64,000 nt of DNA from Escherichia coli (GCF_024223415.1 NZ_CP100500.1); one strand, 5' to 3'; shown: positions 6,428 to 57,278, numbered from the stretch's first letter. The notes: generated by a model from the sequence alone, not told the origin. Translations and numbers: made by a program.

Positions 6428-6428
6428 A

Positions 6429-12983: not shown

Positions 12984-12986
12984 TTC

Positions 12987-16842: not shown

Positions 16843-16926
16843 TATCGGTTTCCCTTTTGGTTTATAAACGAAAACGCCAGCCGTATTCAGGCTGGCGTCA
16901 GTGGAATGAAGTCTGGTGAGTAAGGC

Positions 16927-17124
16927 TCACCGGTTCTGTTGCAGAAGCTGCAGTTGGCGCAGGGTATGGATATCCTCCCTCGCCTGTTCAATGCAGGGCA
17001 GCAGTGCTGCCGAATCCGTTTTATCCTCATCGTTGTCAAAGATAATTCCCGATTCGCAGTCGATATTGTCCTGCAGCCACGCAATCAGAATATCCAGTGC
17101 TGTTTCCGTGGTTAATGATTTCAT
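16927..17124 (-). CDS. Small acidic hypothetical protein
   Basis: Start MKSLTTETALDIL inside ORF 16927..17169; no assignable family. Confidence 0.35.
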   Translation of the reverse strand: MKSLTTETALDILIAWLQDNIDCESGIIFDNDEDKTDSAALLPCIEQAREDIHTLRQLQLLQQNR

Positions 17125-17135
17125 GTTGTTCCTGG

Positions 17136-17624
17136 TTACCAGTTGAAAGTGGGTAAACCCGGCAGGCATTCAGAGCTGGCATCCAGATGAATGAGACTGA
17201 CGCCATAACGTCGGGTAAGTGTGACAACCAGACAACGGAACGTTTTTGACAGGCCCAGGCGCTTAAGCCGCAGAACCGGGTATGACCACGCATCGGTACG
17301 TAACAGATAGCCGCTACCTGTGAAATGAATCCATTCTGATTCACCAACGTCACTGGTCTGATGCGACAGCGAGTACAGCCAGGCGTTATCCTTTTCCGTG
17401 ATATGTGCGGTACTGCAGCGTATGCCGGCAAGGGTTGCAAACGGTGGTAGTGTGCAGGTTGACTGTTGGTCGGATTCCTCCACCACGCGGAGTGAATAAC
17501 CGTTTTCAGCGACCTTGTTAATCAGTTCAGTGAGATTAACACCATCGACGTCAACGACAATTTGCCCCATGTTCAGTGCCTGCACATTAATTCTGTCGGC
17601 TTCCAGCATCAGGGAAAGTTTCAT
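17136..17624 (-). CDS. YeeW-like protein encoded downstream of the CbtA toxin gene
   Basis: 162-aa ORF whose start overlaps the cbtA stop by 4 nt; conserved position in CP4-44-like elements. Confidence 0.5.
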
Positions 17625-17995
17625 CGTTTCTCCGGATGCTTACCCAGGGTAATGTTATTTACCGTTCTGTAATTGTCGCGGGTCATCAGGCCGGTCGCCC
17701 GGCGAGCCCGGAGGATATCAATACTGTTTATTAACTGAGAGCGGGGACAAGTGCTGAATCCCGGCTGGTTGGTACGCACCAGCGCGTATTTTTCCACGAG
17801 AAAATTCACCGCATCACACAGTGAAATGCCAGCTTCAATATGCTGCTCAATCACACGTTCATCGGCGAACGGTGTGTCATTCAGTGTAAGGCCGTAATGC
17901 TGGCCCAGTAGTCGGGAGAGCAGAGTCTGCCAGATGGTGACGGGAGACGGGCAGCTCGATGCCTCCCGTACGTGTGTATCGGGTAATGTTTTCAT
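17621..17995 (-). CDS. cbtA: CbtA/YeeV/YpjF-family cytoskeleton-binding toxin
   Basis: 124-aa protein near-identical in pattern to K-12 YeeV ([32 protein letters not shown]..). Confidence 0.85.
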
Positions 17996-18084
17996 ACTGA
18001 AGGTTTTCCTGATATGCAGAGATGAAAAATGGAAAAGTGGCGTGGTGAAAGCACCAGGCCGGAGCAGAAGGTTATTCCGGTGGT

Positions 18085-18453
18085 TTACTTTTTCGTTTCG
18101 GGCGTCGGATAAACAGCCAGATAAACGTAACCACAGGAGCCGAGGGTGTCGGCTTCGCAGGTCAGCCCTTTCGCATACAGCGTGACGGTATGCTGATGTC
18201 GGGGATTCAGTTCACCGCTGGTGAGCATGAGTTCCAGTTGTTTCATCAGCAGCGGAAAGGCCTGGTCCAGATGGTATGCATCTGCGTCGCTGAAGCGGCC
18301 TCTGATACCGGCGCGGTCGGCAAGGTAATGCAGGCGGTTACCCTCCTGCACCAGACGAGCGCCAAAACAGGGCCTCACTGTGCAGGGAAGCCCCCACCAG
18401 GGGCGGTCGTGATTGTCGTCGGGATGAGTTATCCCGGAGAGTTTGTCTGACAC
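18085..18453 (-). CDS. cbeA: CbeA/YeeU/YfjZ-family antitoxin
   Basis: 122-aa protein upstream of cbtA with conserved YeeU-like sequence. Confidence 0.85.
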
Positions 18454-42343: not shown

Positions 42344-43552
42344 ATGAACGACACCGTTTTAAACGTAATCCCGGTGCCTGTACGCACTTGGGTGGCTATA
42401 GCAGCGCTCGGTATCAGTGCATTTTCGATTGTGACCAGCGAGCTTGCGCCTGTTGGCATGCTTAGTATGCTAGCAAAGGACCTGAACCAGACTGAATCGG
42501 ACACGGACCTTGTCGTGACTGCATACGGCTGGGTTGGGGCTCTGGCAGCACTTTTGTCTGGATTGATACCAGCGAGAATTTCACGTAAGTCTTTGTTAGT
42601 GACTCTTATGGTAGTGTTTGCTTTGTCTTGTGTGGCGGCGACACAGTCATCACTCGATGACCCTATTTATGGGGGCGCGTATGACAGGCGCTTTAGCACA
42701 TGGTGCTTTCTGGGCTTTGATTGGAGCAGTGGCTTCACAGCTTGTTCCGGCTGAAAAACTAGGACTGGCCACCTCAGTTATTTTTGGCGGCGTTTCGGCT
42801 GCCAGCGTTCTGGGTGTGCCACTGTCGAGTTTTATTGCGGATATGGCCGGGTGGCGGAGTGCGTTTACGGCGATTTCTCTGCTGTCACTTGCCGCCGCCT
42901 GTGCTCTATTCTGGACGCTCCCCACACTGACGGTGCCACAACCACTGAGGCTGCGTGTTTACTACGGGATATTCAAAAACCCGGTGCTCCTTTCCCTCTA
43001 TGGTGCCACTGCCTGTATTATTTCGGCTCATTTTGCGGCATTCACTTACCTCCAACCACTACTGACGAAGGCTCAGGAAGTACCGACGGCTTCGATTTCT
43101 GGCCTACTGCTGATGTCCGGGCTCTCCGGTCTGGCCGGAAATATCATTGCCGGAAAGCTGATCGACCGTCATATCAAAGGGCTGATTTTCGCTTCACTGC
43201 TCCTGAGCGCAGGTGCGCTCGGCATACTTGGTATGAGGAGCGCTGCACCACTGCCTTTCTGGTTCACAGGCATACTGCTCGCAGTTTGGGGCGCGGGTAT
43301 CGCCATTGTATTCGTTGGGTTGCAGACAGGTTGCTCCGTAGCGCCGGGGATGCTGTACAACCGGCGTCAGCCATTTACGTTACAATTTTTAACGCAGCGA
43401 TCGGCACCGGTGCGCTTGTGGGAGGCCAGGTATTAGCCGTAAAAGGTATTCAGGGTATGGCCTTACTTGCTGCGGGCATCATTGCATGCAGCATAGCTCT
43501 GGTCGCAATGCTGAAAAGCCCCGCGAATAAGCTCAGGCCTGAAAGGTCGTGA
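42344..43552 (+). pseudogene. MFS transporter gene with at least two frameshifts
   Basis: Three overlapping ORFs (42272..42754, 42618..43436, 42851..43552) together give a 12-TM MFS. Confidence 0.7.
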
Positions 43553-43920
43553 CGAATTCAAAAACGCATTAACCGACAGTAATTAAATGAGAGGGACGTG
43601 TCAGAAGAGGCTTCCCCTTATTTTATACGTCCAGTTCGGTAAAGAGTATTAGCCCACAGGACGAGGCTTATCCGAAACTACAACTCTGAAGGATTTAGTT
43701 AATCGCTTTAGAATTTCCAACTTCCGTTCCTCGCTCACAGCAGACCTTAAGATCTAGGAGGGAGTCCGCTCAGTGCCATGGGCGGACCTTAAGCTTCAGT
43801 AATTTGATTAGCACAATCCCTATGATAAATAGACTGGCCCCCTGAATCTCCAGACAACCAGTATCACTTAAATAAGTGATAGTCTTAATACTAGTTTTTA
43901 GACTAGTCATTGGAGAACAG

Positions 43921-44286
43921 ATGATTGATGTCTTAGGGCCGGAGAAACGCAGACGGCGTACCACACAGGAAAAGATCGCAATTGTTCAGCAGAGCTTTGA
44001 ACCGGGGATGACGGTCTCCCTCGTTGCCCGGCAACATGGTGTAGCAGCCAGCCAGTTATTTCTCTGGCGTAAGCAATACCAGGAAGGAAGTCTTACTGCT
44101 GTCGCCGCCGGAGAACAGGTTGTTCCTGCCTCTGAACTTGCTGCCGCCATGAAGCAGATTAAAGAACTCCAGCGCCTGCTCGGCAAGAAAACGATGGAAA
44201 ATGAACTCCTCAAAGAAGCCGTTGAATATGGACGGGCAAAAAAGTGGATAGCGCACGCGCCCTTATTGCCCGGGGATGGGGAGTAA
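43921..44286 (+). CDS. insC: IS2 InsC (OrfA)
   Basis: Start [18 protein letters not shown], as in IS2. Confidence 0.9.
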
Positions 44287-45149
44287 GCTTAGTCAGCCGT
44301 TGTCTCCGGGTCTCACGTGCGCAACTGCATGCCATGGCCCGTCGGTCGAAGGACTGGCAGGATCGTCGGTGCAAGCGCAAGCCTGATGATACTGACGCGC
44401 TGGCCCGTATCCATACCGTTATCGGCGATCTGCCCACCTATGGTTATCGTCGGGTATGGGCACTGCTGCGCAGACAATCAGAAACTGACGACATGGCGGT
44501 GATCAATGCCAAACGCGTATACCGCATCATGCGTCAGAATGCGCTGCTGCTTGAGCGTAAACCGGAAATACCGCCATCGAAGCGGGCGCATACAGGGAAA
44601 GTGGCCGTTGGAGAAAGTAACCAGCGGTGGTGCTCTGACGGCTTCGAGTTCAGCTGTGATAACGGTGAAAAACTGCGGGTCACGTTCGCTCTGGACTGTT
44701 GCGATCGCGAGGCACTTTACTGGGCGGCCAGTAACGGTGGATATGACAGTGAAACCGTGCAGGACGTCATGCTGGGTGCCGTGGAGCGTCGTTTCGGTAA
44801 CAGCCTGCCGACATCCCCAGTTGAGTGGCTGACAGACAACGGTTCAGCCTACCGTTCTTATCAGACGCGTCAGTTCGCCAGAATGGTAGGACTGGAGCCT
44901 AAACATACGGCGGTACGTAGCCCGGAAAGCAACGGGATGGCAGAGAGCTTCGTGAAAACGATGAAGCGCGATTACATCAGCATCATGCCGAAACCCGACG
45001 GGTTAACAGCGGTAAAGAACCTTGCGGAGGCCTTCGAACATTACAACGAATGGCATCCGCATAGTGCACTGGGGTATCGTTCGCCACGGGAATATCTGCG
45101 GCGGCGAACCAGTAATGGGTTAAGTGATAAAAAGTGTATGGAAATATAG
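44244..45149 (+). CDS. insD: IS2 InsD (OrfB, DDE transposase)
   Basis: 301-aa ORF as in IS2. Confidence 0.9.
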
Positions 45150-45160
45150 GGGCCAATCCA

Positions 45161-45540
45161 ATTGCACTGTTTCGAGGCTATCCGGCGACGATAAGAACTG
45201 ACCAGGGGCCGGAGTTCACTTGCCGTGCACTGGATCAATGGGCCTTTGAGCATGGTGTTGAGTTGCGCTTAATCCAGCCGGGCAAGCCAACGCAGAACGG
45301 ATTTATTGAGAGCTTTAACGGACGATTTCGCGATGAATGTTTGAATGAGCTCTGGTTCAGCGATATCGTTCATGCCAGGAAAATTATTAATGACTGGCGG
45401 CAGGATTATAACGAATGCCGCCCGCACTCCACGCTGAATTATCAGACACTGTCTGAATTTGCAGCGGGCTGGAGAAAGGGTCATTCTGAGAATGAAGATT
45501 CCGACGTTACTAACTGAGTGTTGTATCTAATCGTGGGGGC
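45161..45540 (+). pseudogene. C-terminal fragment of an IS3-family transposase OrfB, truncated by IS2
   Basis: Frame reads ..[52 protein letters not shown]..; no 5' part or orfA present. Confidence 0.7.
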
Positions 45541-46196
45541 AGGTCACAGCTATACGGACACGGTCAAATAGAGCACTTGCTATAACTGATCTTAAACATC
45601 CTAAATTTGATGTTAGAGTTCAGATACATAGTTCTGCCGCAAGGTATGCAGATAAGTTAGCTGCTGAAATAGTTTCAGCATATTATGATAACTCTGAGCT
45701 GGCATATGAAAGCGATTCTCCGTTTCAATTTGGTGTTATTCGAGTTCCTCGTAACGCTACTCACTTTGAGCATTCATTATATGAAAAGTACTCAGGACTT
45801 AATAAGTTCGAGGCTCCTTTTGCTGAGGCTTTAGATAGGTCTGGTTACCCTTGGCACAGAAACCTGAGCAGTGGCGGTTTTCATATCCCACTATTGACAG
45901 AGGGTGATACAAGCTCATTTTATCCAGACTTTTTAGTATGGAAGTCAGACCTTGTCTATTGCCTTGATACCAAGGGGGGCCATCTATTGACTGCTGCCGT
46001 AGCGCGCAAGCTTTTTAATATTCATGAAGATGGTCGGAGTAAGATTCTAGTGAGATTTATCACAGAAGGAAAGCAGACAGAGCTGCGCGGCAAAGCAACA
46101 AAGGGAGGATATACTGTATGGAAAATGAAATCTGGGCATCCTACCCCAATTTATGTGGCGGATTTAGACAAAGCTGTTAGGGAATGTCTAAAATAG
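45541..46196 (+). pseudogene. C-terminal remnant of a PD-(D/E)xK nuclease-like protein (restriction/defence-enzyme-like)
   Basis: Open frame with no plausible start reaching the IS fragment; motif YPDFLVWKSDLVYCLDTKG matches PD...(D/E)xK spacing. Confidence 0.45.
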
Positions 46197-46342
46197 CGAA
46201 GCCATAGCATAGAATTTTTAATGGCATTATGATCAGGACATAAAGGACTTCATGCAGGGAAAAAATATCCCAAAAGAAACTGGTCATGTCAGCACACCAA
46301 AGGATCCTCGCCGGATCCTTTGGTTTTTCTCAGCCACAATCG

Positions 46343-46380
46343 CTTAACGTGAGTTTTCGTTCCACTGAGCGTCAGACCCC
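46343..46380 (-). repeat. Solo Tn3-type 38-bp terminal inverted repeat (outer end at 46380)
   Basis: cttaacgtgagttttcgttccactgagcgtcagacccc is the reverse complement of GGGGTCTGACGCTCAGTGGAACGAAAACTCACGTTAAG. Confidence 0.8.
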
Positions 46381-46455
46381 TATAAACACCTTAGTGAAGT
46401 CATCCTCGCAGGTAAGGCAACACATCCGTAAGGTATTTGGCCAAATCAAATACAA

Positions 46456-47451
46456 CTAGATTGACTCGCGGGGAAGCCAGGGACTCTCAACTATCACTTT
46501 ATCCCGGTGGGTGTCACCATTGATAATGTGCAGTGTACTTAAGCGCCCAATTTCATAATGCGGTAGCTGGACCGTGGATAATGGGGGTAAAAATAAGTTT
46601 CCAATGCCTACAAGATTGTCATAGCCAAGAACGGCAATATCCTGTGGGATTCTGATACCCTGCGTTAACAATGTTTGATACACCATAAATGCAATACGAT
46701 CGTTACCACAGATGACCGAATCAAATCGCGGTTTCCCCTGTTCGATATGCGCCAGCAACATCTCCGGAATATCTCGGTAGTGCTCATCGCCGAATTGCAT
46801 ATAGCAGTGCTCAAGCGTATCAGGATCGATACTGGCTTCCCTGCAGGCGCGATCAAGCCCACGACGACGACGACGCGTCGCCAGATGGTTGACGGGTAAA
46901 TGCAGGCATAGAGGGCGGCTGTATCCTGCTGCCAGCAGTGCCTGTACGGCCGTATACTGGCCATGTTCATCGTCAGGTATATAGCTGGCAACCGGCTCTC
47001 CCTTGTTCTCGCAGTTGGCCAGAACGCAAGGAAGCTCCAGTAACCGGGGAGGAATACTGACTTCACGCAGCCCCATGGTAGTAAAAATGATCCCCCCGGG
47101 TCGATGGGCGAGCAGCAGGTCGACAATATCGTCAGGATTATCATCGGTAAACATATTCACCACAAAGCTGTTCCAGCCATACGCCCGCGCGGTTTCTTCA
47201 ATAGACAGCGTGATTTCTACTGAAAAAGGAGTGGTGACCGTATCCAGCGCAAGCACACCAATCGTTTTGTTCCGGGTGCCAACACGACGAATCTGCTGGG
47301 CAGAAAGGTCTGGCACATAATTTAACTGCGTGATCGCCTCCTGCACCCGAGCCAGAGTCTCAGGCTTTACGCGTTTCGGGTCATTCAGCACCCGTGAAAC
47401 CGTCATGAGCGATACATTGGCCAGTTTGGCCACATCCTTTAAAGACGCCAT
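46456..47451 (-). CDS. fosR: LacI/GalR-family repressor of the fructooligosaccharide locus
   Basis: 331-aa ORF with N-terminal HTH and periplasmic-binding-like domain; divergent from the operon. Confidence 0.75.
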   Translation of the reverse strand: MASLKDVAKLANVSLMTVSRVLNDPKRVKPETLARVQEAITQLNYVPDLSAQQIRRVGTRNKTIGVLALDTVTTPFSVEITLSIEETARAYGWNSFVVNMFTDDNPDDIVDLLLAHRPGGIIFTTMGLREVSIPPRLLELPCVLANCENKGEPVASYIPDDEHGQYTAVQALLAAGYSRPLCLHLPVNHLATRRRRRGLDRACREASIDPDTLEHCYMQFGDEHYRDIPEMLLAHIEQGKPRFDSVICGNDRIAFMVYQTLLTQGIRIPQDIAVLGYDNLVGIGNLFLPPLSTVQLPHYEIGRLSTLHIINGDTHRDKVIVESPWLPRESI

Positions 47452-47691
47452 AGTTTTCCATTATCTGAATGCATACACCCGGTAAGGTGTTGTGAGCAAA
47501 TGCGAATGCCCTATTCTAGGCACGGACACCCAGGGTTATGCAGACCACTCTGATAAATTTGAGCTAGATCTCAACATTTCAATGTTAACGTTAACTTTTG
47601 TGATTAACATCGACAAACAAATCAAAATCGAGTGTCCCCCCAAAATGATAACGTTACCATATTAGCATATCCTTCTTACGAGATTACGTAG

Positions 47692-48930
47692 ATGAAAAAA
47701 CGGCCTACTCGAAGTTACATGCTGCTCAGCGCTCTGCTGTTCTTTTTCTTTGTGACCTGGTCCTCATCAAGTTCACTGCTCTCAATCTGGCTTCACCAGG
47801 AAGTGGGGCTAAAAGCATCGGAAACCGGCATTATTTTTTCAGTATTATCCGTCTCCGCGCTCTTCGCGCAGGTCTGTTATGGCTTTATTCAGGACCGACT
47901 TGGTCTGCGCAAACATTTGTTATGGTTTATCACCGCGTTGTTGATCCTCTCCGGCCCGGCTTATCTGCTTTTTAGTTATTTGCTGAGCGTTAATATTCTG
48001 CTGGGCAGCGTATTCGGGGGCTTATTTATCGGGCTGACGTTTAATGGGGGTATCGGCGTTCTGGAGTCCTATACCGAGCGCGTCGCGCGTCAAAGTACCT
48101 TTGAGTTTGGGCGGGCACGCATGTGGGGGTCTCTGGGCTGGGCAGTTGCCACGTTTTTTGCCGGGTTACTGTTTAATATCAACCCTGACCTTAACTTCCT
48201 GGTGGCTTCATGCTCAGGGTTAATCTTCTTCTGCCTCCTGGCCCGATTAAAGGTGGCCGCGCCGGCAAGCATGGAGAAACTCGAAATTGGCGCTAAAAAA
48301 GTTTCTCTGGAAGACGCCCTGCGTCTGCTTACTCTGCCGCGCTTCTGGGCACTGATATTCTTCGTGGTCGGAACCTGCATTTACGGCGTATACGATCAGC
48401 AATTCCCGGTCTATTTCTCATCACAGTTCCCGACATTACGCGAAGGGAACGAGATGTTTGGCTATTTAAACTCTTTCCAGGTCTTTCTCGAGGCCGCAGG
48501 TATGTTTTGTGCGCCGTGGCTGGTTAATCGCATTGGTGCTAAAAATGGTCTGATATTCGCAGGAATGGTGATGGCGCTGCGCATGATTGCTTCAGGGCTG
48601 GTGGAAGGCCCCCTGCTTATCTCCATTACCAAACTGCTTCACGCGGTCGAACTGCCAATATTGTTAGTCGCCATATTTAAATACAACAGTCTGAATTTCG
48701 ACAAACGTCTCTCCTCCACCATTTATCTGGTGGGATTTGCCTGCACCAGCTCCGTCATTGGTACCGTATTGTCCCCGCTGGCAGGCTTTAGCTATGAGAG
48801 ATTTGGCTTCGCCCAATCCTATCTGATCATGGGCATCATGGTGTTCAGCACCACGTTTATTTCCATTTTCCTTTTGCGCTCAACTAAATCCTCATCTGAG
48901 CCATCTTTTCTGCAGCAAAAAGCTGTGTAA
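47692..48930 (+). CDS. fosT: Oligosaccharide:H+ symporter (LacY/CscB family)
   Basis: 412-aa 12-TM ORF; first gene of the operon. Confidence 0.75.
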   Translation: MKKRPTRSYMLLSALLFFFFVTWSSSSSLLSIWLHQEVGLKASETGIIFSVLSVSALFAQVCYGFIQDRLGLRKHLLWFITALLILSGPAYLLFSYLLSVNILLGSVFGGLFIGLTFNGGIGVLESYTERVARQSTFEFGRARMWGSLGWAVATFFAGLLFNINPDLNFLVASCSGLIFFCLLARLKVAAPASMEKLEIGAKKVSLEDALRLLTLPRFWALIFFVVGTCIYGVYDQQFPVYFSSQFPTLREGNEMFGYLNSFQVFLEAAGMFCAPWLVNRIGAKNGLIFAGMVMALRMIASGLVEGPLLISITKLLHAVELPILLVAIFKYNSLNFDKRLSSTIYLVGFACTSSVIGTVLSPLAGFSYERFGFAQSYLIMGIMVFSTTFISIFLLRSTKSSSEPSFLQQKAV

Positions 48931-48949
48931 TGTACTGAGAATAAAGACG

Positions 48950-50383
48950 ATGACATCCTTATTAGAACAGGCTGAACAGGTGCTTGAAAAAGCACAATCC
49001 GGGATTAATCCGCGCTGGTATCCGCGCTATCACCTCGCCCCTCGCGCAGGCTGGATGAATGATCCTAATGGCCTGGTATGGTTTGACGGCTGGTATCACG
49101 CCTTTTATCAACACCATCCCTACTCCCCGAAATGGGGTCCGATGCACTGGGGGCACGCCCGAAGCAAAGATCTGGTGCATTGGGAACATTTGCCCGTCGC
49201 GCTAGCGCCGGAAGGCCCGGCGGACAAAGACGGCTGTTTCTCAGGTTCCGCCGTGGTGGACGGCGATACGCTGGCGCTCATCTATACCGGACATAAATTT
49301 CACGGCCCGTCGGACACTGACGACAACCTCTACCAGGTGCAGTGTCTGGCGACCAGTCGTGACGGCATCCATTTTGAACGGCACGGCAAGGTGATTGATA
49401 CACCGCCCGGACTGCATCACTTTCGCGATCCGAAGGTGTGGCGCGAAGGTGAGTTCTGGTACATGGTTGTCGGTTCCCGCGTGGAAAATACCGGTCAGGT
49501 GCGCCTGTACCGTTCCACCGATCTCCGCGAATGGCATGACGAAGGTATTTTCGCCGAGGCTGATGAAGGCAAGGGCTTTATGTGGGAATGCCCGGATTTC
49601 TTCCCCCTGGGAGAGAAGCGTGTCCTGATGTTCTCGCCGCAGGGCATGGCGGCGGAAGGGTATCACTATCGCAACCTGTTCCAGAGCGGCTATTTACTTG
49701 GGGACTGGCAGCCAGGTCAACCGTTCACCCACAGCGGACAATTTACTGAGCTGGACCACGGCCACGACTTTTATGCCCCGCAGAGTTTCCTGACCCCGGA
49801 TGGCCGACGCATTGTCATCGGGTGGCTGGATATGTGGGAATCATCGATGCCCGAACAGCAGGATGGCTGGGCCGGAATGCTCTCGCTTCCTCGCGAATTA
49901 AGCCTTGTCGATGGTCGTGTGAGAATGAAACCTGCTGCCGAAGTGACCGCGCTGCGTGGCAGCTATTATCCCACGCCCGTCCGCTGTCTGAACAATCAGA
50001 ACGTCCTTGTCGCGGCAAATGCCGACGCGGTCGAAGTTCAGTTGGCATGGGATTTGAGCGCATCGACGGCTGAACAGTTTGGTATCGCGTTGGGCGACGG
50101 GTTGAGAATTTACGTCGATGATCAGGCTGGGCGTCTGGTGGTGGAGCGCCGCTATCCGGAATATTCGCTGGAAGGCACTCGCAGTATTCCGCTTCCAGCA
50201 GACAGCGTTCTGTCACTGCGAATTTTTATTGACCGCTCATCGGTGGAAGTTTTTGTTAACGATGGTGACGCTTGCTTAAGCAGTCGTATTTATCCGCAGC
50301 CGGGCGAGCGTGATATTTCATTGTTTGCAAATCTGGGGAAGGCCTCATTATACGATGCGGGATACTGGTCTTTAGATAAATAA
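48950..50383 (+). CDS. Cytoplasmic GH32 beta-fructofuranosidase (FosGH1-like)
   Basis: 477-aa ORF with GH32 N-terminal motif WMNDPNG and no signal peptide. Confidence 0.8.
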   Translation: MTSLLEQAEQVLEKAQSGINPRWYPRYHLAPRAGWMNDPNGLVWFDGWYHAFYQHHPYSPKWGPMHWGHARSKDLVHWEHLPVALAPEGPADKDGCFSGSAVVDGDTLALIYTGHKFHGPSDTDDNLYQVQCLATSRDGIHFERHGKVIDTPPGLHHFRDPKVWREGEFWYMVVGSRVENTGQVRLYRSTDLREWHDEGIFAEADEGKGFMWECPDFFPLGEKRVLMFSPQGMAAEGYHYRNLFQSGYLLGDWQPGQPFTHSGQFTELDHGHDFYAPQSFLTPDGRRIVIGWLDMWESSMPEQQDGWAGMLSLPRELSLVDGRVRMKPAAEVTALRGSYYPTPVRCLNNQNVLVAANADAVEVQLAWDLSASTAEQFGIALGDGLRIYVDDQAGRLVVERRYPEYSLEGTRSIPLPADSVLSLRIFIDRSSVEVFVNDGDACLSSRIYPQPGERDISLFANLGKASLYDAGYWSLDK

Positions 50384-50547
50384 TTCTCCGTTCCGACCTG
50401 TTTCTTGCAGGGTGAGTTTTTATTTCTGCCAGTCTCTGGCTGGCATGTTATTGTCTGGAATAATGAGAGAGCAAAATGGATGAAAGCGTAATACCTCAAA
50501 ATTGCATTACCTCGAAAGATAAAAATATATTTGTTCCAGGAAAACAG

Positions 50548-51741
50548 ATGCTGGCATTAATGGTGACATTAGCAGCATTTCCTGCCATTGCTGAAGACGT
50601 TACAGGAAACTATCAAAGCTATTTTCAGGATGAATCAGACACCAACGGTACGAGTGTTTCATTAGCCAATCAAGGCAATGAAAAATCATCCCTTAGCGCT
50701 TCATCTTCTCCGGTTGCTGCAGGTCAAAAACCTGAACTCACGACCTCGTCAAAGCCAGTGACGTTATCGGCACCAATGGAGAATAAGAAAACTGCAGTAG
50801 AAAAACGTCCTAAAGGGGATAACCCTGAAGATGTCAGTCTGTTGCGTTTAAGGCAGGAAGATCCGCCGGTTCACTGGAACAGTATTGGTCGTAACATGGA
50901 AGTGGGTAGCTTGCATGGGAACATTGGATCTCAGATAGAAATTGACGATGTTCGCTGGAGCAATAATAAGAAAAACAGCGGCAAGTTTAAACTCGCCACC
51001 ATTCAGGCTTTTTTAAGGCACGATGAATTGCCTAACTGGTATTTCGGTTTCTGGAATGCCAGAGAAGACAGTTATAAAGGACAGTTCAGTAATCAGGACT
51101 ATAAAGGCACCAATACCATCAATGAATTTTTTGTGGGCCATATTTTCGAAACCTGGCGGGGTAATATCGGTACGGAAGTCATGGTCGGCTCCGAAACGGC
51201 AACTAAACGCTGGAAAAACCGGTTCAAAGTCTGGCAGGACCTGCGACTGTCCAACAAATGGAGCCTGGCCGGATACGCGTATGGCGAGTATCAGCCTCAG
51301 GGGAACGAACCGGGGAATGGCGATCTGGAGCAGTACATTTTCGAAATTGAGCCAGCCATTCAATACCGCGTGAATCCGGATCTCGGACTCTATTTGCGGC
51401 CCTATTATTACCATAACCGCCAGGAGCGTCAGAGCTGGGGCGACATTGTAGAAGAAGAATGGAAAGTCACGGCCGGGCTCTGGCGAAACTGGTATCCATT
51501 ATTAACCTCCCTGTATGTTGGATTTGGCCAGGACAAAATAGATAACGCCAGCAATGCCAGCGAAGTTTTCTATGACGGCCGTTATAAGTTTATCGGTGGA
51601 ACGCTGAGTTATCCGGTATTTGGTGAGGTGCGATTATATGGTGAATTCAAGGCACAATTTACGAAAGAAACCGGACTTTGGACATCAACCGGTCACTCAT
51701 GGAATCCGTTTACCGTGGTTGGCGTGAATTATAACTTCTGA
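50548..51741 (+). CDS. Putative outer-membrane beta-barrel protein (FosX/FosY-like; alternative start 50476)
   Basis: Signal peptide MLALMVTLAAFPAIA; aromatic-rich; C-terminal ...VGVNYNF. Confidence 0.6.
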   Translation: MLALMVTLAAFPAIAEDVTGNYQSYFQDESDTNGTSVSLANQGNEKSSLSASSSPVAAGQKPELTTSSKPVTLSAPMENKKTAVEKRPKGDNPEDVSLLRLRQEDPPVHWNSIGRNMEVGSLHGNIGSQIEIDDVRWSNNKKNSGKFKLATIQAFLRHDELPNWYFGFWNAREDSYKGQFSNQDYKGTNTINEFFVGHIFETWRGNIGTEVMVGSETATKRWKNRFKVWQDLRLSNKWSLAGYAYGEYQPQGNEPGNGDLEQYIFEIEPAIQYRVNPDLGLYLRPYYYHNRQERQSWGDIVEEEWKVTAGLWRNWYPLLTSLYVGFGQDKIDNASNASEVFYDGRYKFIGGTLSYPVFGEVRLYGEFKAQFTKETGLWTSTGHSWNPFTVVGVNYNF

Positions 51742-51755
51742 TATTCAGGTGTAGC

Positions 51756-53249
51756 ATGAAAAAATTAATAGTTGCGGCATCTTTCGCTCTGCTTGCGCTT
51801 TCGCTCGGCAATAACCCTGCCTGGTCACAGCCTTCGAAAGAGACATTACAGAATAAAAGCATCACCCATATTAATGGCTTTTTTCCGAGGGTTGAAGGTT
51901 CATTCGTGGGCGACCCTATGCCCGTTTTTAACGATGGCAAATTTGATATTTATTATCTTAATGATGTCCGAGGCGGCAGCGATCTGGGGGTACATGCTTT
52001 TCATCTCTTGTCGAGTGCCAACTTGTATGATTATCAGAACCATTCGGAAGTGATCCCCTACGTTAACGACGTTGACGATCCTGAACTGTTATTGGGAACC
52101 GGTTCGATTATTAAAGTCGGCGATACCTGGCATGCCTGGTACACCGCACACAATGAAAATGTGTTCCCGGTTGAGTCTGTTATGCACGCGACCAGTAAGG
52201 ACCGCCTTCACTGGGTGAAACACCCGCAGGACACCCTGTTACCCGGCGGTAACTATCGGGGTAATGATTTCAGGGACCCTCACGTCGTTTGGGTTGAGGA
52301 AAAGAAAGAATACTGGATGTTAATTACTACGCGCAGTAATGGGCGTGGGGTTATTGCCCGATACAGTTCAACGGATTTAAAGCACTGGGAAGATCGCGGC
52401 GTATTTTTTGATAACGACACCATCACCAGCAATGCCAACCTCGAATGCCCGACACTGGTTTACTTCAACGGACGCTGGTATCTCAGCTTTAGCGACCAAT
52501 GGCCGTTACGCCTGACACAATACCGGGTTGCGGACAATCCGGAGGGGCCGTGGCGGAAACTGGACAATTATGTGGTCGACGGCTCAGGTTTTTACGCGGG
52601 TAAACTGGTTCTCAAAAACGATCGGCTGTTTGTTTTCGGCTGGATCCCGACGAAAGCCGGTAACCGTGACAGCGGCAACATTGATTGGGCAGGGAATCTG
52701 GTTGCTCATGAGCTCACCGCAGATGCCCAGGGCCAGCTCAACAGCATCCTCCCCCAGGAGCTTCAGAAGGTCATCAGTGAGAATCCTGGCCCGGAAACCA
52801 CCTTGACGAGCACTAAGACACTCAAAACGGACACGTCGTTCGGCCCCTTACAGTCGGCGCTGTACCCGGCCTTGCCTGAGCGCGGTGAGTTGAGTGCAAC
52901 CATCGATGTTCCTTCTGCCGGAATGGTGATGAGCTTTGGTCTGACCGACGACAGAGTCAGTGATGCGATGCTGAACGTTGTGTTCAATAAGAGCAAAGGA
53001 AAAGTCTATTTTTTCAACGCGCCGCTAGCGTCGATTCATCAGGCTAACGCGGAATCCTGGGTGGACATTCCGATCGGGGAAAAAATTGAGTTACGCGTTC
53101 TCATACAAAACTCAATTGCTGTCTTTTATATAAACAACAAAGTGGCATTCAGTACCCGGATGTATTCCATGCAGGAGAAACCGTGGAGTATTAGCCTGCC
53201 TCAAAACGACCATTTTCACGCGACGTTGAAAATAAAAGAAATGATTTAA
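51756..53249 (+). CDS. Secreted/periplasmic GH32 fructan hydrolase (FosGH2-like)
   Basis: 497-aa ORF with signal peptide MKKLIVAASFALLALSLG and GH32 motifs. Confidence 0.8.
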   Translation: MKKLIVAASFALLALSLGNNPAWSQPSKETLQNKSITHINGFFPRVEGSFVGDPMPVFNDGKFDIYYLNDVRGGSDLGVHAFHLLSSANLYDYQNHSEVIPYVNDVDDPELLLGTGSIIKVGDTWHAWYTAHNENVFPVESVMHATSKDRLHWVKHPQDTLLPGGNYRGNDFRDPHVVWVEEKKEYWMLITTRSNGRGVIARYSSTDLKHWEDRGVFFDNDTITSNANLECPTLVYFNGRWYLSFSDQWPLRLTQYRVADNPEGPWRKLDNYVVDGSGFYAGKLVLKNDRLFVFGWIPTKAGNRDSGNIDWAGNLVAHELTADAQGQLNSILPQELQKVISENPGPETTLTSTKTLKTDTSFGPLQSALYPALPERGELSATIDVPSAGMVMSFGLTDDRVSDAMLNVVFNKSKGKVYFFNAPLASIHQANAESWVDIPIGEKIELRVLIQNSIAVFYINNKVAFSTRMYSMQEKPWSISLPQNDHFHATLKIKEMI

Positions 53250-53261
53250 CGGGATATTATT

Positions 53262-54275
53262 ATGAAAAACTATCATGCCCTGTCTGTTATTTTTACTCTT
53301 ATGTTACCCGCGCTGGCGAATGCGAGCATGAGCATCATGAAGGATCCGTCTGGAAAGGTTATCGCCGTGGACCCTTGGTCATATCTTGATGAAGATGTTA
53401 TGTGGACCTCAGCCCGCTCCTCCAATCCTGCCGGTGGCCGCGTTCATGGCCAACTGAAAATGAAATATGCCATTGAGGATAATAACTGGCGTAACAGCCA
53501 TTTCCACAACGGGAATGATTCGCTGACGTTTGTACAAGGTGTGATGCGGCACGATGCGTTACCCGGTTGGTATCTGGCTTTCTCTGAGGGCAGAACCACT
53601 AACTATAACGGGACGTGGGAGGATCAGTCTTACCTCAGCCAAAACCAGTGGACTCAGTTGATCATCGGCCATGAATATTTTTACAAGCGTCTGCGCTATG
53701 GCTGGGATGTGATGGGAGGAAGCGCCTCAATCGAAGACCGCTGGCAAGGCCGCGTTAAGTTCTTTACCGATCTTCGGGTTACGGATAATTTCTCATTCTT
53801 TAACTACCTGTATCAGCAGATCGATCACCGGCGCAGCGGTGGGTCGCAAAACGACCGTGACGTGCGTTCATTTCAGATTGAGCCAGGCGTGCAATACATT
53901 ATTAATAACAACACCGGTGTCTGGTTCCGCCAGCAGTTCGCATCTGCCATTTTAGACAGGGCGCAGTGGGGCGATATCGACGAAAAAAGCTGGACCACGT
54001 CAGTCGGCGTCTGGCGAAACTGGGGGAAGTTATCCACAACGCTCAGCGGCGGTTATGGTCATTATAAGAAATACAATGCGCAACCTGAGGATGGCGAAGT
54101 CTTTCAGAATACCCGCAATCGCTTCCTGAAGGTATCGGCAAATTATCCTTTGACCTCTCGTTTTACCGTGTCCGGAGAAGTTACTGGTTCGTTGATCAAA
54201 CAGAACGGAAGTTGGGTCACTAACGGTGAGGCCATTACCACTGAGTATAAGCTGATGCTGGATTATAACTTTTAA
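53262..54275 (+). CDS. Putative outer-membrane beta-barrel protein, paralog of 50548..51741 (FosX/FosY-like)
   Basis: Signal peptide MKNYHALSVIFTLMLPALANA; C-terminal ...LMLDYNF; shared motifs with the other barrel ORF (LPNWYFGFW / LPGWYLAFS). Confidence 0.6.
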   Translation: MKNYHALSVIFTLMLPALANASMSIMKDPSGKVIAVDPWSYLDEDVMWTSARSSNPAGGRVHGQLKMKYAIEDNNWRNSHFHNGNDSLTFVQGVMRHDALPGWYLAFSEGRTTNYNGTWEDQSYLSQNQWTQLIIGHEYFYKRLRYGWDVMGGSASIEDRWQGRVKFFTDLRVTDNFSFFNYLYQQIDHRRSGGSQNDRDVRSFQIEPGVQYIINNNTGVWFRQQFASAILDRAQWGDIDEKSWTTSVGVWRNWGKLSTTLSGGYGHYKKYNAQPEDGEVFQNTRNRFLKVSANYPLTSRFTVSGEVTGSLIKQNGSWVTNGEAITTEYKLMLDYNF

Positions 54276-54388
54276 ACCGTACGCTGGATAATCCATGCCA
54301 CCTGAACACGCTGAAGCGTTAGTAAAAATAGTGACCTTACCGCAGGTCACGTTTAAAAAAACAAGTTAATTATTATTAAGGAAATATC

Positions 54389-55351
54389 ATGAATATCTGG
54401 ACTCTTGGCGATGCTGTTGTTGATCTTCTACCCCTTACAGATATGCAATTTCGTGCTTGTGCAGGAGGTGCGCCATTTAATGTTGCGATAGGTACTGCAC
54501 AATTGAAATGTCGTACCGGCTTTATAGGTCGCGTAGGGGATGACGATTTTGGCCATTTCCTGAGAAAAACTCTCGAAGATTCAGGAGTTTCTACACAATG
54601 TATCCAAATGGATAAATATCATCGTACAAGTACAGTACTGGTTTCTCTTAAAGATCAGGGAGAACGTGGTTTTACATTTCTTACGAACCCTTCAGCCGAC
54701 CAATTTCTAACACAAGATGCCCTTCCAGCTTTTAGTGATGATATCCTGCATTTTTGTTCACTTGCGCTGGTTGCTGCAGATTGCCGCACGACTTTGACTA
54801 AAGCAGTCCAGGAAGTCATTGACCACGGTGGACTTATCAGCTTTGATGTTAATTTACGAGACCAAATGTGGCGTGATAAGGAAGAAATGTTTGCGACAGT
54901 GAGTCAATTCGCTGAAAAAGCCGATATCCTTAAACTCTCTGAAGAAGAGTGGTACTGGTTAATGGGTACACATGATTATACAGAGGCGTTAGAAGCACTC
55001 AAAACCCATCCTGCCAGATTAAAAGTGGTCACCTTTGGTGCGAGAGGTTCATTGGTATTATGGCAAGATATGGTGATACATTTCAGAGGATTTAATGTTA
55101 AAAGTATTGACACAACAGGCGCTGGAGATGCTTTTATGGCTGGGTTACTTGCCAGCATCGCCAATAAAGGTTTGCCAATGAATTTTCCAGAACTTCAATT
55201 AGCAATCACTCAGGCCAGTGCCACCGGAGCGCTCGCAACTACCAAAAAAGGTGCACTTACCGCCCTTCCTGATACAGCCGCACTGGAAACGTTCATTAAT
55301 CATTTTCCATTACCGGGCTATGAGATCCTTGGAGCAACCGCTACGGTGTAA
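54389..55351 (+). CDS. fosK: Fructokinase (PfkB/ribokinase family)
   Basis: 320-aa ORF with PfkB motifs (GGAPFNVA..., DTTGAGDAF). Confidence 0.85.
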   Translation: MNIWTLGDAVVDLLPLTDMQFRACAGGAPFNVAIGTAQLKCRTGFIGRVGDDDFGHFLRKTLEDSGVSTQCIQMDKYHRTSTVLVSLKDQGERGFTFLTNPSADQFLTQDALPAFSDDILHFCSLALVAADCRTTLTKAVQEVIDHGGLISFDVNLRDQMWRDKEEMFATVSQFAEKADILKLSEEEWYWLMGTHDYTEALEALKTHPARLKVVTFGARGSLVLWQDMVIHFRGFNVKSIDTTGAGDAFMAGLLASIANKGLPMNFPELQLAITQASATGALATTKKGALTALPDTAALETFINHFPLPGYEILGATATV

Positions 55352-55459
55352 CAACTTTTCATGCTGTATGGTGTAGGAATATAGCAAACGTATCTTCAAT
55401 TGTTAGTTATGACCTCTAGAAGTATGAGATATCTTTTGTAGATAATCATGGCTGTGTAT

Positions 55460-55486
55460 GGGCAGCCTTATACTGCCCCTTTTTCT
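55460..55486 (+). terminator. Intrinsic terminator downstream of the fos operon
   Basis: gggcag-ccttata-ctgccc hairpin followed by cttttt. Confidence 0.55.
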
Positions 55487-55631
55487 ATTACCTTAAGAAA
55501 GATAAGTACAGTTTGCTTTCCTGGAGATTAATGCATGCTCTGGATAGCAATCCTCAACTATCAGCAGAAAGTAGATAAAATTTCAGGGTGGCCCTATAAA
55601 AATCATTAGATGCGTTTCTGACGTTACTTAG

Positions 55632-55943
<312 letters not shown>

Positions 55944-55983
55944 TTACTGATTTAGTGTATGATGGTGATTTTAAGGTGCTTGC

Positions 55984-56259
55984 GTGGCTTCCATTTCCAT
56001 CAGATGTCCTTCCTGCTCCGCTACTGAAGGCGTGGTGCGTAACGGCAAAAGCACTGCCGGACATCAGCGCTATCTCTGCTCTCATTGCCGTAAAACATGG
56101 CAACTACAGTTCACTTACACCGCCTCTCAGCCCGGTACGCACCAGAAAATCATTGATATGGCCATGAATGGCGTCGGATGTCGCGCCAGTGCACGCATTA
56201 TGGGCGTTGGCCTCAACACGGTTTTACGTCACTTAAAAAACTCAGGCCGCAGTCGGTAA
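55984..56259 (+). CDS. insA: IS1 InsA
   Basis: 91-aa ORF with zinc finger [15 protein letters not shown]... Confidence 0.9.
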
Positions 56260-56681
56260 CCTCGCGCATACAACCGGGCAGTGATGTGATTGTCTGCGCT
56301 GAAATGGACGAACAGTGGGGCTACGTCGGTGCTAAATCACGTCAGCGCTGGCTGTTTTACGCGTATGACAGGATACGGAGGACGGTTGTGGCGCACGTCT
56401 TCGGTGAACGCACTCTGGCCACACTGGAGCGTCTTCTGAGCCTGCTGTCGGCCTTTGAGGTCGTGGTATGGATGACGGATGGCTGGCCGCTGTATGAATC
56501 ACGCCTGAAGGGAAAGCTGCACGTTATCAGCAAGCGTTACACTCAGCGCATTGAGCGACATAATCTGAATCTGAGACAACATCTGGCAAGGCTGGGACGG
56601 AAGTCACTGTCGTTCTCAAAATCGGTGGAGCTGCATGACAAGGTCATCGGGCATTATCTGAACATAAAACACTATCAGTAA
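56178..56681 (+). CDS. insB: IS1 InsB (expressed as an InsAB' fusion by frameshift)
   Basis: 167-aa ORF overlapping insA in the -1 frame. Confidence 0.85.
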
Positions 56682-57278
56682 GTTGGAGTCATTACCAACG
56701 GTAAATATCCATAAGTGTGGGCTTGCGGAATAAATAGTTTGGTTAAAGATAAGGTGGTTTAATACTGCTGAGTATTTTATAGGAGATATGATGTTGTTTT
56801 ATAAACAAACTAAAAAACATGAAGTTTAATTGATAGGGGACAATGAAATCTCCTTTTTAAACTCAATTGCTATGTTGGGTTTATGGGGTTGCTATAAACG
56901 GTTTTGAATAAACGCTTTACTATTCTCATGAAAACAGTGTTATGTTGTTATTTTAACAACCCCGCATTGTTTTTTGATGGGATGGGTATTAAGACTTTAG
57001 AGAAACTTTATAAATAAATATATGTATTCAATAGTGGCGAAAATAATAACCCATCTTATTATTACATTGTGGAAGTGCTCTTTTTTATTATCGCTCATGT
57101 TTTACCTTTCTGTTAAAACATATTCTTTCGGATATGTAAAATGGTAAGAGATAGTTAATCTACGTATGCATGGGGGCGTTTCATTGCATGGCGTTATAAT
57201 CTGGCTTGTATATAAAGGCACTATAAGTTTTACTCTTACAGTGCCTTTATTTGGCCATGATTTACCCTCTACAATAAA

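Follow-up and report, generated by a model that had tools for sequence, protein, structure and literature searches.

The fos locus of Escherichia coli: two predicted outer membrane channels for fructooligosaccharides and an AT-rich fructokinase gene of probably different ancestry

The stretch of 64,000 nucleotides of Escherichia coli DNA that we have analyzed (GCF_024223415.1, NZ_CP100500.1; hereafter the window) contains the already published fos gene cluster for growth on prebiotic fructooligosaccharides (FOS). The overall picture, which we consider highly likely, is that of a catabolic locus carried on a 9.25-kb IS-bounded unit within a selC-type island and assembled from three modules, in which FOS would enter the cell by the pathway proposed below and the kinase gene, fosK, would have been replaced. 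The current understanding of the fos locus is not overturned, the locus being already known. What is added here is the three-module assembly of the operon, the fosK junction and a concrete, testable role, suggested by structural models, for FosX and FosY, which are still described in the literature as proteins of unknown function (PMC3325963; bioRxiv 2026.02.25.707879). Also new but modest are a stem-loop upstream of fosX, the conserved fosX-fosGH2-fosY triad and a YQSYF motif on the disordered N-terminal tether of FosX. The features are collected in Table 1.

Table 1. Features of the fos locus and its surroundings (positions counted from the first letter of the window)
Feature	Position	Strand	Description
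Left flank	43876..45517	+	IS3-family (ISSen4-like) transposase ORFs and another transposase fragment; from ORFs and RefSeq annotation of the homologous region
Shared 9.25-kb unit	46381..55632	.	99.7-99.8% with IncHI1 pEQ2, an IncY plasmid and the Enterobacter sp. MGH 24 chromosome
fosR	46456..47451	-	LacI/GalR-family repressor, 331 aa; PF00356 and PF00532
Divergent control region	47452..47691	.	Candidate FosR operators AATGTTAACGTTA (47581-47593) and AATGATAACGTTA (47644-47656); from repeat search and sequence
fosT	47692..48930	+	LacY-type oligosaccharide:H+ symporter, 412 aa; PF01306, NF007077
fosGH1	48950..50383	+	Cytoplasmic GH32 beta-fructofuranosidase, 477 aa, without signal peptide
Intercistronic stem-loop	50427..50445	+	TGCCAGTC-TCT-GGCTGGCA, then T-rich tail; flagged terminator-like
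fosX	50476..51741	+	Predicted outer membrane 14-stranded channel, 421 aa; PF16946
fosGH2	51756..53249	+	GH32 with Sec-type signal peptide, 497 aa, predicted periplasmic
fosY	53262..54275	+	Predicted outer membrane 14-stranded channel, 337 aa
Short hairpin	54331..54350	+	GTGACCT-N6-AGGTCAC between fosY and fosK; homology with other fos loci falls off at this junction
fosK	54389..55351	+	PfkB-family fructokinase, 320 aa; AT-rich allele
Terminator-like hairpin after fosK	55460..55486	+	GGGCAG-N7-CTGCCC and CTTTTTCT; pattern match, fold z only -0.95
Right flank	55631..56698	.	ISKpn26 (IS5-like) end fragment 55631-55929, cut by IS1 at about 55929-56698

Seven ORFs were called in the window between 46456 and 55351, in the order and on the strands given by the first-pass annotation, and their families (LacI, LacY_symp, GH32 twice, PfkB) bear out the divergent repressor and the six-gene set that it had proposed. 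Published accounts describe a single six-gene operon (PMC3325963; bioRxiv 2026.02.25.707879) that codes for an MFS transporter, two GH32 enzymes, two proteins whose function is unknown and one fructokinase, with a divergent LacI/GalR regulator (PMC3325963). Gene content and order agree with these descriptions, leaving little doubt that the proposed identification as fos was right. The locus is functional in K-12 after transfer on a plasmid, a result that applies to the locus and not to its single genes (bioRxiv 2026.02.25.707879). As far as its published description goes, the fos cluster of ExPEC BEN2908 (AGI-3 at selC; Schouler et al., 2009; Porcheron et al., 2011, 2012) has the same seven genes in the same order, likewise with a divergent LacI repressor and an island adjoining selC, and the two operators reported for it may correspond to the two operator-like palindromes seen here; at the level of this description, rather than of the BEN2908 sequence (AY857617), there is no substantive difference.

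Most of the locus was found in 37 of 5426 complete E. coli genomes, in 36 of them at 99% or above, and 43 plasmid records matched it at 99% or above. It occurs also on conjugative plasmids, with near-identical copies on IncHI1 (the pEQ plasmids) and IncY. The borders of the shared unit come from direct blastn of the window against two plasmid loci (L027 and L028) and L002. Positions 45161-64000 are at least 99.9% identical, save for a 350-bp insert, to a genome locus with near-identical flanks (L001), in which an integrase and tRNA-Sec lie about 10 kb downstream of fosK. A tRNA search within the window found none; placed by way of L001, fos would here belong to a selC-associated island (AGI-3 type), with selC probably just past the window end. 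Being a documented gut-colonization factor of ExPEC/APEC that travels with resistance plasmids, the locus therefore bears on the selection of unwanted E. coli by prebiotic FOS feeding.

The operon is made of three modules, fosR-fosT-fosGH1, fosX-fosGH2-fosY and fosK. Some plasmids carry only the fosR-fosT-fosGH1 part, while the Brenneria loci keep fosR-fosX-fosGH2-fosY together and have fosT-fosGH1 elsewhere. The fosX-fosGH2-fosY triad was present in 21/21 other loci reaching far enough upstream (among L002-L023 and L025). The module borders coincide exactly with the two long spacers, of 92 and 113 bp, each of which holds one stem-loop. The control region contains two near-identical 13-nt boxes, each within a palindrome (47581-47599 and 47643-47660). 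TGTGA, at 47599-47603, resembles a CRP half-site. FosR has been described as the repressor of the operon, with two operators and catabolite repression (PMC3325963). By their pattern, the boxes are candidate FosR operators and TGTGA a candidate CRP site.

FosT is a member of the LacY family, with profile scores above the cut-offs (PF01306, 420.9 bits, cut-off 24; TIGR00882, 419.5 bits, cut-off 220) and an NF007077 score of 530 bits, and a delta-fosT mutant is unable to use scFOS (PMC3325963). FosGH1 has the GH32N (PF00251, 364 bits) and GH32C domains, a TIGR01322 score of 477 bits and the GH32 motifs WMNDPNG, FRDPKV and WECPDF; its closest solved chain is 7vco (E 2.5e-163). In FosGH2, GH32N is followed by a BT1760-like C-terminal domain (GH32_BT1760-like_C). 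Residues 37-480 match PDB 6r3r, 7znr and 8a9y at E of about 1e-45, and the motifs VGDPMP, FRDPHV and LECPTL align with the same motifs of BT1760. The signal peptide of FosGH2, as read from the sequence, has no lipobox cysteine. FosGH2 is related to the BT1760-type endo-levanases and is predicted to be periplasmic.

A parallel to this arrangement is the levan utilisome of Bacteroides thetaiotaomicron (BT1760 and SusCD; PDB 6R3R, 7ZNR). FosGH2 is a full-length homologue of BT1760 with conserved catalytic motifs, and in both systems this GH32 subtype is encoded beside an outer membrane transporter for fructan oligosaccharides. However, the transporter of the utilisome is a TonB-dependent SusC with a SusD lid, whereas fos has what are predicted to be passive 14-stranded barrels, and the plain Sec signal and predicted periplasmic location of FosGH2 contrast with BT1760, a surface lipoprotein. 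The logic of the fosR-fosT-fosGH1(-fosK) module, a symporter of the LacY type and a GH32 invertase in the cytoplasm together with a PfkB fructokinase and a LacI repressor, is also that of the enterobacterial sucrose regulons csc and scr (CscB-CscA-CscK-CscR). The scr system adds a dedicated porin, ScrY, that is an 18-stranded trimeric LamB-type and not an OmpG/CymA-type barrel; fos, by comparison, encodes two porins as well as a further GH32 that is exported.

A way to approach the role of FosX and FosY is through their fold. They are paralogues (30% identity, E 5e-52) and both match PF16946 (Porin_OmpG_1_2, NCBI 'OmpG porin family protein'; gathering 23 bits) over nearly the whole model, FosX with 434 bits (positions 2-294 of 294) and FosY with 429.5 bits (positions 1-294 of 294). 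This very small family has 23 representative clusters among 1.84 billion proteins, and all five of the distant members sampled (5/5) lie inside oligosaccharide-utilization operons. The signal peptides and the C-terminal YNF that the first-pass annotation had noticed can be read directly from the sequence: by eye, the signal peptides end at MKNYHALSVIFTLMLPALANA|S in FosY and at ...LALMVTLAAFPAIA|E in FosX, and FosX terminates in G-V-N-Y-N-F. Both proteins therefore bear the marks of outer membrane barrels, a signal peptide and a C-terminal beta-signal with an aromatic last residue. Structure prediction (AF2) gave 14-stranded barrels, at residues 61-336 in FosY and 146-420 in FosX, the latter with a block pLDDT mostly of about 90 or more (the lowest 79 and 83), in models built from shallow alignments of 24-29 sequences. 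Their top structural matches were CymA and OmpG; for FosX, Foldseek gave OmpG 2iwv at E 1.7e-11, with CymA next.

Sequence searches of FosX and FosY against PDB chains gave chance matches only (E>0.1), phmmer against the OmpG chains in PDB gave no match at E<=10, and neither protein matched PF09381 (OmpG proper), the family to which K-12 OmpG, itself not matching PF16946, belongs. The link to OmpG and CymA thus rests on fold and profile comparison. OmpG of E. coli K-12 (PDB 2F1C, 2IWV) belongs to this other Pfam family and its remote profile similarity (hhalign 91.8%, E 7.6e-7) covers the C-terminal half only (165 columns). CymA, the cyclodextrin channel of Klebsiella oxytoca (PDB 4D5B; TCDB 1.B.26), has 10-12% identity and no sequence-level match, and lacks the disordered linker of about 100 aa and the YQSYF motif of FosX. 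Taken together, PF16946, the models and the structural matches bear out the suggestion of outer membrane barrels, and FosX and FosY are predicted to be channels of the CymA/OmpG class dedicated to FOS entry.

The two proteins differ consistently in architecture, as FosX alone has a long N-terminal extension: the signal peptide is followed by the YQSYF motif, a low-complexity linker and a conserved DVSLLRLRQEDPPVHW segment, and residues 1-142 have pLDDT <50. In FosY, the barrel is preceded by about 38 conserved aa, AVDPWSYLDEDVMW. These pre-barrel segments are conserved in both, with pLDDT of 55-61 in FosY and <50 in FosX. The FosX extension, used as sole query to look for the YQSYF-linker on other proteins, retrieved FosX fragments only.

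In the pathway that we propose, FOS of DP3-5, whose size (about 500-830 Da) reaches or exceeds what general porins let through, would cross the outer membrane via two channels dedicated to them, FosX and FosY, which would be monomeric, 14-stranded and of the OmpG/CymA structural class. FosGH2, the relative of the endo-levanase BT1760, would shorten the oligosaccharides in the periplasm. Import of the products by FosT, a LacY-type symporter, is established in the literature, as are the repression of the operon by FosR via two operators and its catabolite repression. In the cytoplasm, judging from their families, FosGH1 would release fructose and FosK would convert it to fructose-6-phosphate. 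Both channels are retained in the loci examined, as seen in the constancy of the triad and the low dN/dS.

That the two barrels are redundant duplicates, one of them dispensable or decaying and the pair without special meaning, might be suspected from their being paralogues of the same family and from the distant GH32 loci, in which a single porin suffices. This is unlikely, as every Enterobacterales and Orbaceae locus examined retains the two, with only about 30% identity between them, purifying selection acts on each (dN/dS of about 0.11 for fosX and 0.05 for fosY, relative to the nearest locus) and the long extension is consistently found in FosX only. A different role, in which FosX and/or FosY serve the export or surface anchoring of FosGH2 rather than uptake, with larger fructans cut outside and the FosX tether as docking element, would fit the position of fosGH2, always sandwiched between fosX and fosY in the loci examined, the surface location of its closest solved relative, BT1760 of the Bacteroides levan utilisome, and the conserved motif on the long disordered linker of FosX. 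It is nevertheless highly improbable: the best structural matches, CymA and OmpG, are passive diffusion channels, CymA without its N-terminus has a pore of about 15 A (PMC8049027), through which an enzyme of 55 kDa would not fit in folded form, the domain search found no POTRA, TPS or autotransporter features, and distant members sit beside enzymes of cytoplasmic types (such as GH65 phosphorylase and beta-phosphoglucomutase), where only uptake makes sense. A bolder version of the uptake reading, unlikely as a whole, would make the triad a physical unit, with the Y-x-G-x-YQSYF peptide of FosX, borne by a disordered tether that spans 60-100 residues in the periplasm, docking FosGH2 (or FosT) under the channel, and with FosX and FosY non-redundant in specificity (for chain length, or for beta-2,1 versus beta-2,6) and gated by CymA-like N-terminal plugs. 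If true, fos would be a passive, TonB-independent proteobacterial counterpart of the Bacteroides levan utilisome.

The third module consists of a single gene, whose function and ancestry can be considered separately. FosK is a clear PfkB member (PF00294, 183 bits) and scored 345.8 bits with the fructokinase equivalog NF006957, under its cut-off of 450. As the names given to it differ ('aminoimidazole riboside kinase' in RefSeq versus fructokinase in the fos literature), its substrate is inferred. The first-pass annotation had described fosK as more AT-rich than the GH32 genes and suggested a mosaic origin, and the composition analysis confirms that it stands out (GC 0.437, GC3 0.321). GC3 of the other six genes is 0.47-0.60 (0.57-0.60 in fosT, fosGH1, fosGH2 and fosY; 0.47 in fosX). 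Compared with the nearest orthologous locus, dS of fosK is saturated and dN is about 0.2, versus dS of 0.3-0.7 and dN of 0.02-0.06 for its six neighbors. The relatives of FosK form a cluster at 89-100% identity, the nearest outside it reaching only 73%; across this gap (89% to 73%) no donor lineage of the AT-rich gene was found.

The low GC of fosK might instead come from codon or mutation bias peculiar to this gene, which would then be an orthologue without separate origin, as the lack of a donor would allow and as occurs within the locus, GC3 of fosX being also below that of its neighbors, likewise in most of the closer loci. We find this scarcely credible. At the same position in 11 other loci, fosK has a GC3 of 0.47-0.60, like its neighbors, and saturated dS is seen in fosK only. 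In the identity matrix, E. coli-type FosK is an outlier, with 67-74% identity to the FosK of other loci, which share 73-88% among themselves and track the tree of the other fos genes. The break in DNA homology to L004 and L005 falls between 54276 and 54349, which narrows the fosK junction to about 70 bp. The mosaic origin is strengthened by these observations, which support fosK being an AT-rich allele whose ancestry differs from that of the other fos genes. Most likely, it replaced an originally linked kinase by recombination within the spacer between fosY and fosK; that it diverged very fast in place is a formal alternative of lower probability. The same spacer holds a hairpin that had been placed at 54333-54352. 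It exists, 2 nt away from there, but it had been over-read, as it lacks both a U-tract and conservation. Its stability (-10.8 kcal/mol, with z at -3.85 for a 41-nt context and at only -1.28 for the spacer as a whole) and its position in the longest spacer of the operon would suit an intrinsic terminator setting fosK apart as its own transcription unit. This is very unlikely given what follows the stem, GTTTAAAAAAA instead of a U-tract, with the T-run on the opposite strand and no gene converging there, given the one six-gene operon of the literature (PMC3325963; bioRxiv 2026.02.25.707879) and given that RNAalifold on the spacer of orthologous loci found no conserved structure (consensus -0.73 kcal/mol). 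In other genera, folding of single sequences gave another and longer stem-loop, with a 3' arm homologous to that of this hairpin.

The stem-loop at the other module border, between fosGH1 and fosX, is better conserved and had gone unmentioned in the first-pass annotation. It lies within a conserved block (about 50418-50475) that also includes the fosX ribosome-binding site, and it is identical or structure-preserving in 16 loci, with a mean pairwise identity of 0.94, as compared with 0.48 over the spacer's 5' part. In the more distant loci, its place is taken by other GC-rich hairpins. A promoter scan of this block gave nothing, and a sigma-54 or extended -10 promoter, suspected by eye, was discarded for the unfit GG/GC spacing and because a start there would remove the fosX ribosome-binding site. 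The hairpin after fosK, given its fold z-score, counts as a pattern match and not as proof of a terminator. The end at 55486 chosen by the first-pass annotation for the locus corresponds to this hairpin and T-run at 55460-55478.

The fructooligosaccharide (fos) locus comprises seven intact ORFs by ORF calls, all within 46456-55351 of the window, and their order and domain families bear out the arrangement described in the first-pass annotation (see table). The intergenic gaps inside the modules (fosR-fosT-fosGH1, fosX-fosGH2-fosY and fosK) are 12-19 bp, and only two are longer, fosGH1-fosX (92 bp) and fosY-fosK (113 bp). A hairpin followed by a T-run 3' of fosK (55460-55478) accounts for the end coordinate that had been assigned to the locus. 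Between the two boxes of the control region lies a TGTGA half-site. Judging from their sequence, the boxes are putative FosR operators and the half-site points to CRP control, in keeping with the regulation published for the avian ExPEC strain BEN2908, where the divergent LacI/GalR repressor binds two operators and the locus is under catabolite repression (PMC3325963).

Features of the fos locus and of its counterparts in the comparison loci (coordinates are those of the window unless a comparison locus, L, is named)
Feature	Coordinates	Strand	Description
fosR		minus	LacI family HTH and periplasmic-binding-protein-like domain
fosT		plus	LacY_symp, 421 bits
fosGH1		plus	GH32 N and C domains; no signal peptide
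fosX		plus	PF16946, 434 bits
fosGH2		plus	GH32 N domain and BT1760-like C-terminal domain; Sec-type signal peptide
fosY		plus	PF16946, 429.5 bits
fosK		plus	PfkB
Control-region box AATGTTAACGTTA	47581		inside palindrome; near-identical to AATGATAACGTTA
Control-region box AATGATAACGTTA	47644		inside palindrome; near-identical to AATGTTAACGTTA
fosGH1-fosX stem-loop	50427-50445		TGCCAGTC-TCT-GGCTGGCA, 8-bp stem, T-rich tail; non-coding conserved block 50418-50475
FosX motif and linker	50548-50900		FosX residues ~25-142; loci L003-L025
Long fosY-fosK spacer stem-loop	about 10015-10135 in L007, L009, L010, L013, L025, L008		co-varying outer stem, GACCAGCGG / CCGCGGGTC variants

Gene content, order and setting in a selC island all match the description of the fos locus of BEN2908, which lies on the island AGI-3 (Porcheron et al., 2012, PMC3325963), so that the earlier identification of the locus holds. 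In E. coli O78 "3" the DNA downstream of fos is essentially identical to that of the window, with an integrase and tRNA-Sec ~10 kb past fosK, and selC is placed just past the window end. The fos stretch of ~9 kb was detected in 52 of 5426 complete E. coli genomes, as both chromosomal and plasmid copies; 37 of the 5426 contain most of it, 36 with a match of at least 99%. A plasmid search returned 43 records with at least 99% identity to fos; most of these plasmids are conjugative, and they come from E. coli, Klebsiella michiganensis and Salmonella. The unit 46381-55632 (9.25 kb) is common, at 99.7-99.8%, to the IncHI1 plasmid pEQ2, an IncY plasmid and the chromosome of Enterobacter sp. MGH 24, and its right edge abuts a fragment of ISKpn26 (IS5-like) cut by a copy of IS1 (55631-56698). 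Copies on equine IncHI1 plasmids had been published before, and a cloned fos locus is known to give K-12 an scFOS-dependent fitness gain (bioRxiv 2026.02.25.707879). Since published descriptions and plasmid-borne copies are both in the literature, the window's locus is the published fos and is, as a whole, already known. What we add is incremental: support for a channel class, the fosX-fosGH2-fosY triad, a tether motif in FosX, a precise replacement of fosK and a stem-loop between fosGH1 and fosX. The original observation is confirmed and its interpretation supported.

FosX and FosY are paralogues (30% identity, E 5e-52), and both match the Pfam family PF16946 (Porin_OmpG_1_2) end to end. A sequence search of PDB chains gave no sequence-level match of either protein to solved structures, OmpG included, and K-12 OmpG is assigned to another Pfam family (PF09381). 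The alignment with OmpG by hhalign (91.8%, E 7.6e-7), which covers the C-terminal half only, supports a probable remote homology over that half. Structure prediction, which the first-pass annotation had proposed, was run with AlphaFold2 on alignments of 24-29 sequences and gave a 14-stranded barrel for both FosY (residues 61-336; mean pLDDT 82.5, pTM 0.77) and FosX (residues 146-420; pLDDT of this block mostly ~90 or above). The first 142 residues of FosX, ahead of the barrel, have a pLDDT below 50. Together with the PF16946 match, the predicted barrels support the earlier claim that both proteins are outer-membrane barrels. The models further support, as an incremental addition, that they would belong structurally to the CymA/OmpG class of channels. 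A porin assignment is already implied by the Pfam and RefSeq names (RefSeq lists two GH32, two "OmpG porin family proteins", an MFS transporter, a LacI regulator and a kinase), and in the fos papers that we consulted a porin role of FosX and FosY is not stated. Fructooligosaccharides of DP3-5 have sizes at which passage through general porins starts to be limiting.

The N-terminal regions ahead of the barrels differ between the paralogues. FosY orthologues have a strongly conserved pre-barrel segment of ~38 residues (...AVDPWSYLDEDVMW...). FosX orthologues start with a signal peptide whose n-region is long, followed by a YQSYF motif, a variable linker and a conserved segment, DVSLLRLRQEDPPVHW, which can be aligned to the pre-barrel segment of FosY. 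The motif, Y-x-G-x-YQSYF at the mature N-terminus, was present in 16 of 19 aligned sequences, that of the window included, and is absent in the Brenneria group; the linker between it and the barrel (60-100 residues) is hypervariable and rich in Ser, Thr, Pro and Ala. Used alone as a query, the FosX extension retrieved just FosX fragments, and no other protein family was found to carry the module. Sugars of ~1 kDa pass through CymA, whose N-terminal 15 residues fold back into a pore of 15 A (PMC8049027). By analogy, the pre-barrel segments could act as CymA-like plugs.

A scan for related loci, with one genome per species, yielded 24 loci, 22 of them long enough to include both fosY flanks. The full fosR-T-GH1-X-GH2-Y order is kept in Enterobacter, Citrobacter, Buttiauxella, Phytobacter, Hafnia, Pantoea, Kosakonia, Erwinia, Cedecea, Klebsiella and Lelliottia. 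Brenneria and Affinibrenneria have a fosR-X-GH2-Y block and either carry fosT-GH1 elsewhere or lack it, and an Orbaceae genome has the order fosT-X-GH2-Y. Judged by these gene orders, the invariant core is the X-GH2-Y triad. Both fosX and fosY are under purifying selection (dN/dS of ~0.11 and ~0.05, respectively, against the nearest non-identical locus), and redundancy between them is unlikely. The enzyme of the triad, FosGH2, can be aligned over residues 37-480 to BT1760, an endo-levanase of Bacteroides (E ~1e-45), and the catalytic motifs GDP, RDP and ECP are in register; 7ZNR and related entries stem from a levan utilisome study. Since no lipobox was found in FosGH2, its predicted location is the periplasm.

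The family to which FosX and FosY belong is very small, since a profile search gave only 23 matches at E<=0.001 among 1.84 billion representative proteins. We checked the genomic context of five distant PF16946 members and all five lie in a sugar-utilisation operon: two have a FosGH2-like GH32 immediately upstream and a LacI regulator, an ABC sugar transporter and a second GH32 as neighbours, two adjoin a GDE_C/MGH1-like glycosidase and ABC components, and one is preceded by a GH65 phosphorylase and a beta-phosphoglucomutase-like HAD protein. This context supports operon-encoded oligosaccharide entry channels as the general role of the family. The GH65 phosphorylase/beta-phosphoglucomutase-like arrangement was also seen to precede ompG in the ycj cluster of K-12 (comparison loci L036, 7001-7978, and L026, 2948-3853), which suggests an equal operon role for PF16946 and OmpG proteins although their Pfam families differ.

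The mosaic origin proposed for the AT-rich fosK proved correct by GC3, identity, dS/dN and a break in DNA homology. GC3 is 0.32 in fosK, 0.57-0.60 in fosT, fosGH1, fosGH2 and fosY, and 0.47 in fosX; at the same position in 11 other loci the kinase GC3 (0.47-0.60) resembles that of its neighbours. The low value of fosX is a trait of the gene itself rather than the mark of a recent event, since most of the closer loci also have a fosX that lies below its neighbours. At the protein level the other loci share 87-97% identity with the window in FosT and FosY, 79-94% in the GH32s and only 66-74% in FosK. Against the nearest non-identical locus (L003) the six genes from fosR to fosY have a dS of 0.32-0.71 and a dN of 0.02-0.06, vs. 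a saturated dS and a dN of 0.21 for fosK. An all-against-all matrix gave 73-88% identity among the other FosK proteins, which group as the other genes do, with the E. coli-type FosK as an outlier (67-74% identity to the others). Homology of the DNA to the loci of Buttiauxella and C. werkmanii (82-86%) stops at the fosY stop codon (54275/54276) and restarts, at 69%, from 54346-54349, which places the junction within the fosY-fosK spacer. A homologue search did not find the donor of the AT-rich fosK, the identity of its relatives falling from 89% to 73%. There is no kinase 3' of fosY in four comparison loci (L011, L014, L018, L019), and two others (L016, L017) have an unrelated PfkB kinase nearby. 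Independent evidence of modularity comes from plasmids that carry the fosR-fosT-fosGH1 part only, e.g., a Plesiomonas plasmid (79% identity).

The hairpin noticed earlier between fosY and fosK does exist (GTGACCT-N6-AGGTCAC, 54331-54350, -10.8 kcal/mol). As GTTTAAAAAAA comes next, it does not qualify as a canonical terminator of the operon, and RNAalifold gave no structure for it common to the fos loci. The same spacer of other genera forms a far longer stem-loop (-28 to -38 kcal/mol), whose outer stem is GACCAGCGG...CCGCGGGTC; only the 3' arm is left in the E. coli-type spacer, where the short hairpin appears to be a remnant at the recombination junction. Better supported is the stem-loop between fosGH1 and fosX, which is identical, nearly so or structure-preserving in 16 loci, with 94% identity vs. 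48% in the 5' part of the spacer. Its changes fall at loop positions or preserve pairing in the plus-strand RNA only (in Pantoea allii, C-G to U-G and U-G to U-A); in more distant loci this position is taken by unrelated GC-rich hairpins. We infer an intercistronic RNA element, possibly a leaky attenuator or a processing/stability site, which would stand at the border between the cytoplasmic and the envelope modules.

Some observations concern the rest of the window. Positions 1-18312 match strain NCTC9041 at 99.6%, where the annotation is core chromosome (ilvB, uhpABCT, adeD, nepI, setC) and then the island start, with CbtA/YeeU toxin-antitoxin genes. The island DNA at 18313-46380, of a make-up unlike two comparison strains, contains DUF932, YfjI/DUF3987, a GTPase, IS21/IS100 and an ISSen4-like IS3 element, as well as a truncated MFS gene (42618-43436). 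Downstream of fos, a second sugar cluster of low GC (57279-62314, ~0.43) encodes an MFS transporter, a LacI regulator and, on the minus strand, a GH31 glycosidase of 795 aa; in the homologous genome, genes for a TPR protein and an integrase and then tRNA-Sec come next, just past the window end. An AIDA/Ag43-like autotransporter is spread over three consecutive minus-strand ORFs at 21740-28778 (one of 840 aa without Pfam match, one with pertactin/autochaperone and beta-domain, one with AIDA repeats), adjoined by an IS66 transposase, and this gene is probably disrupted.
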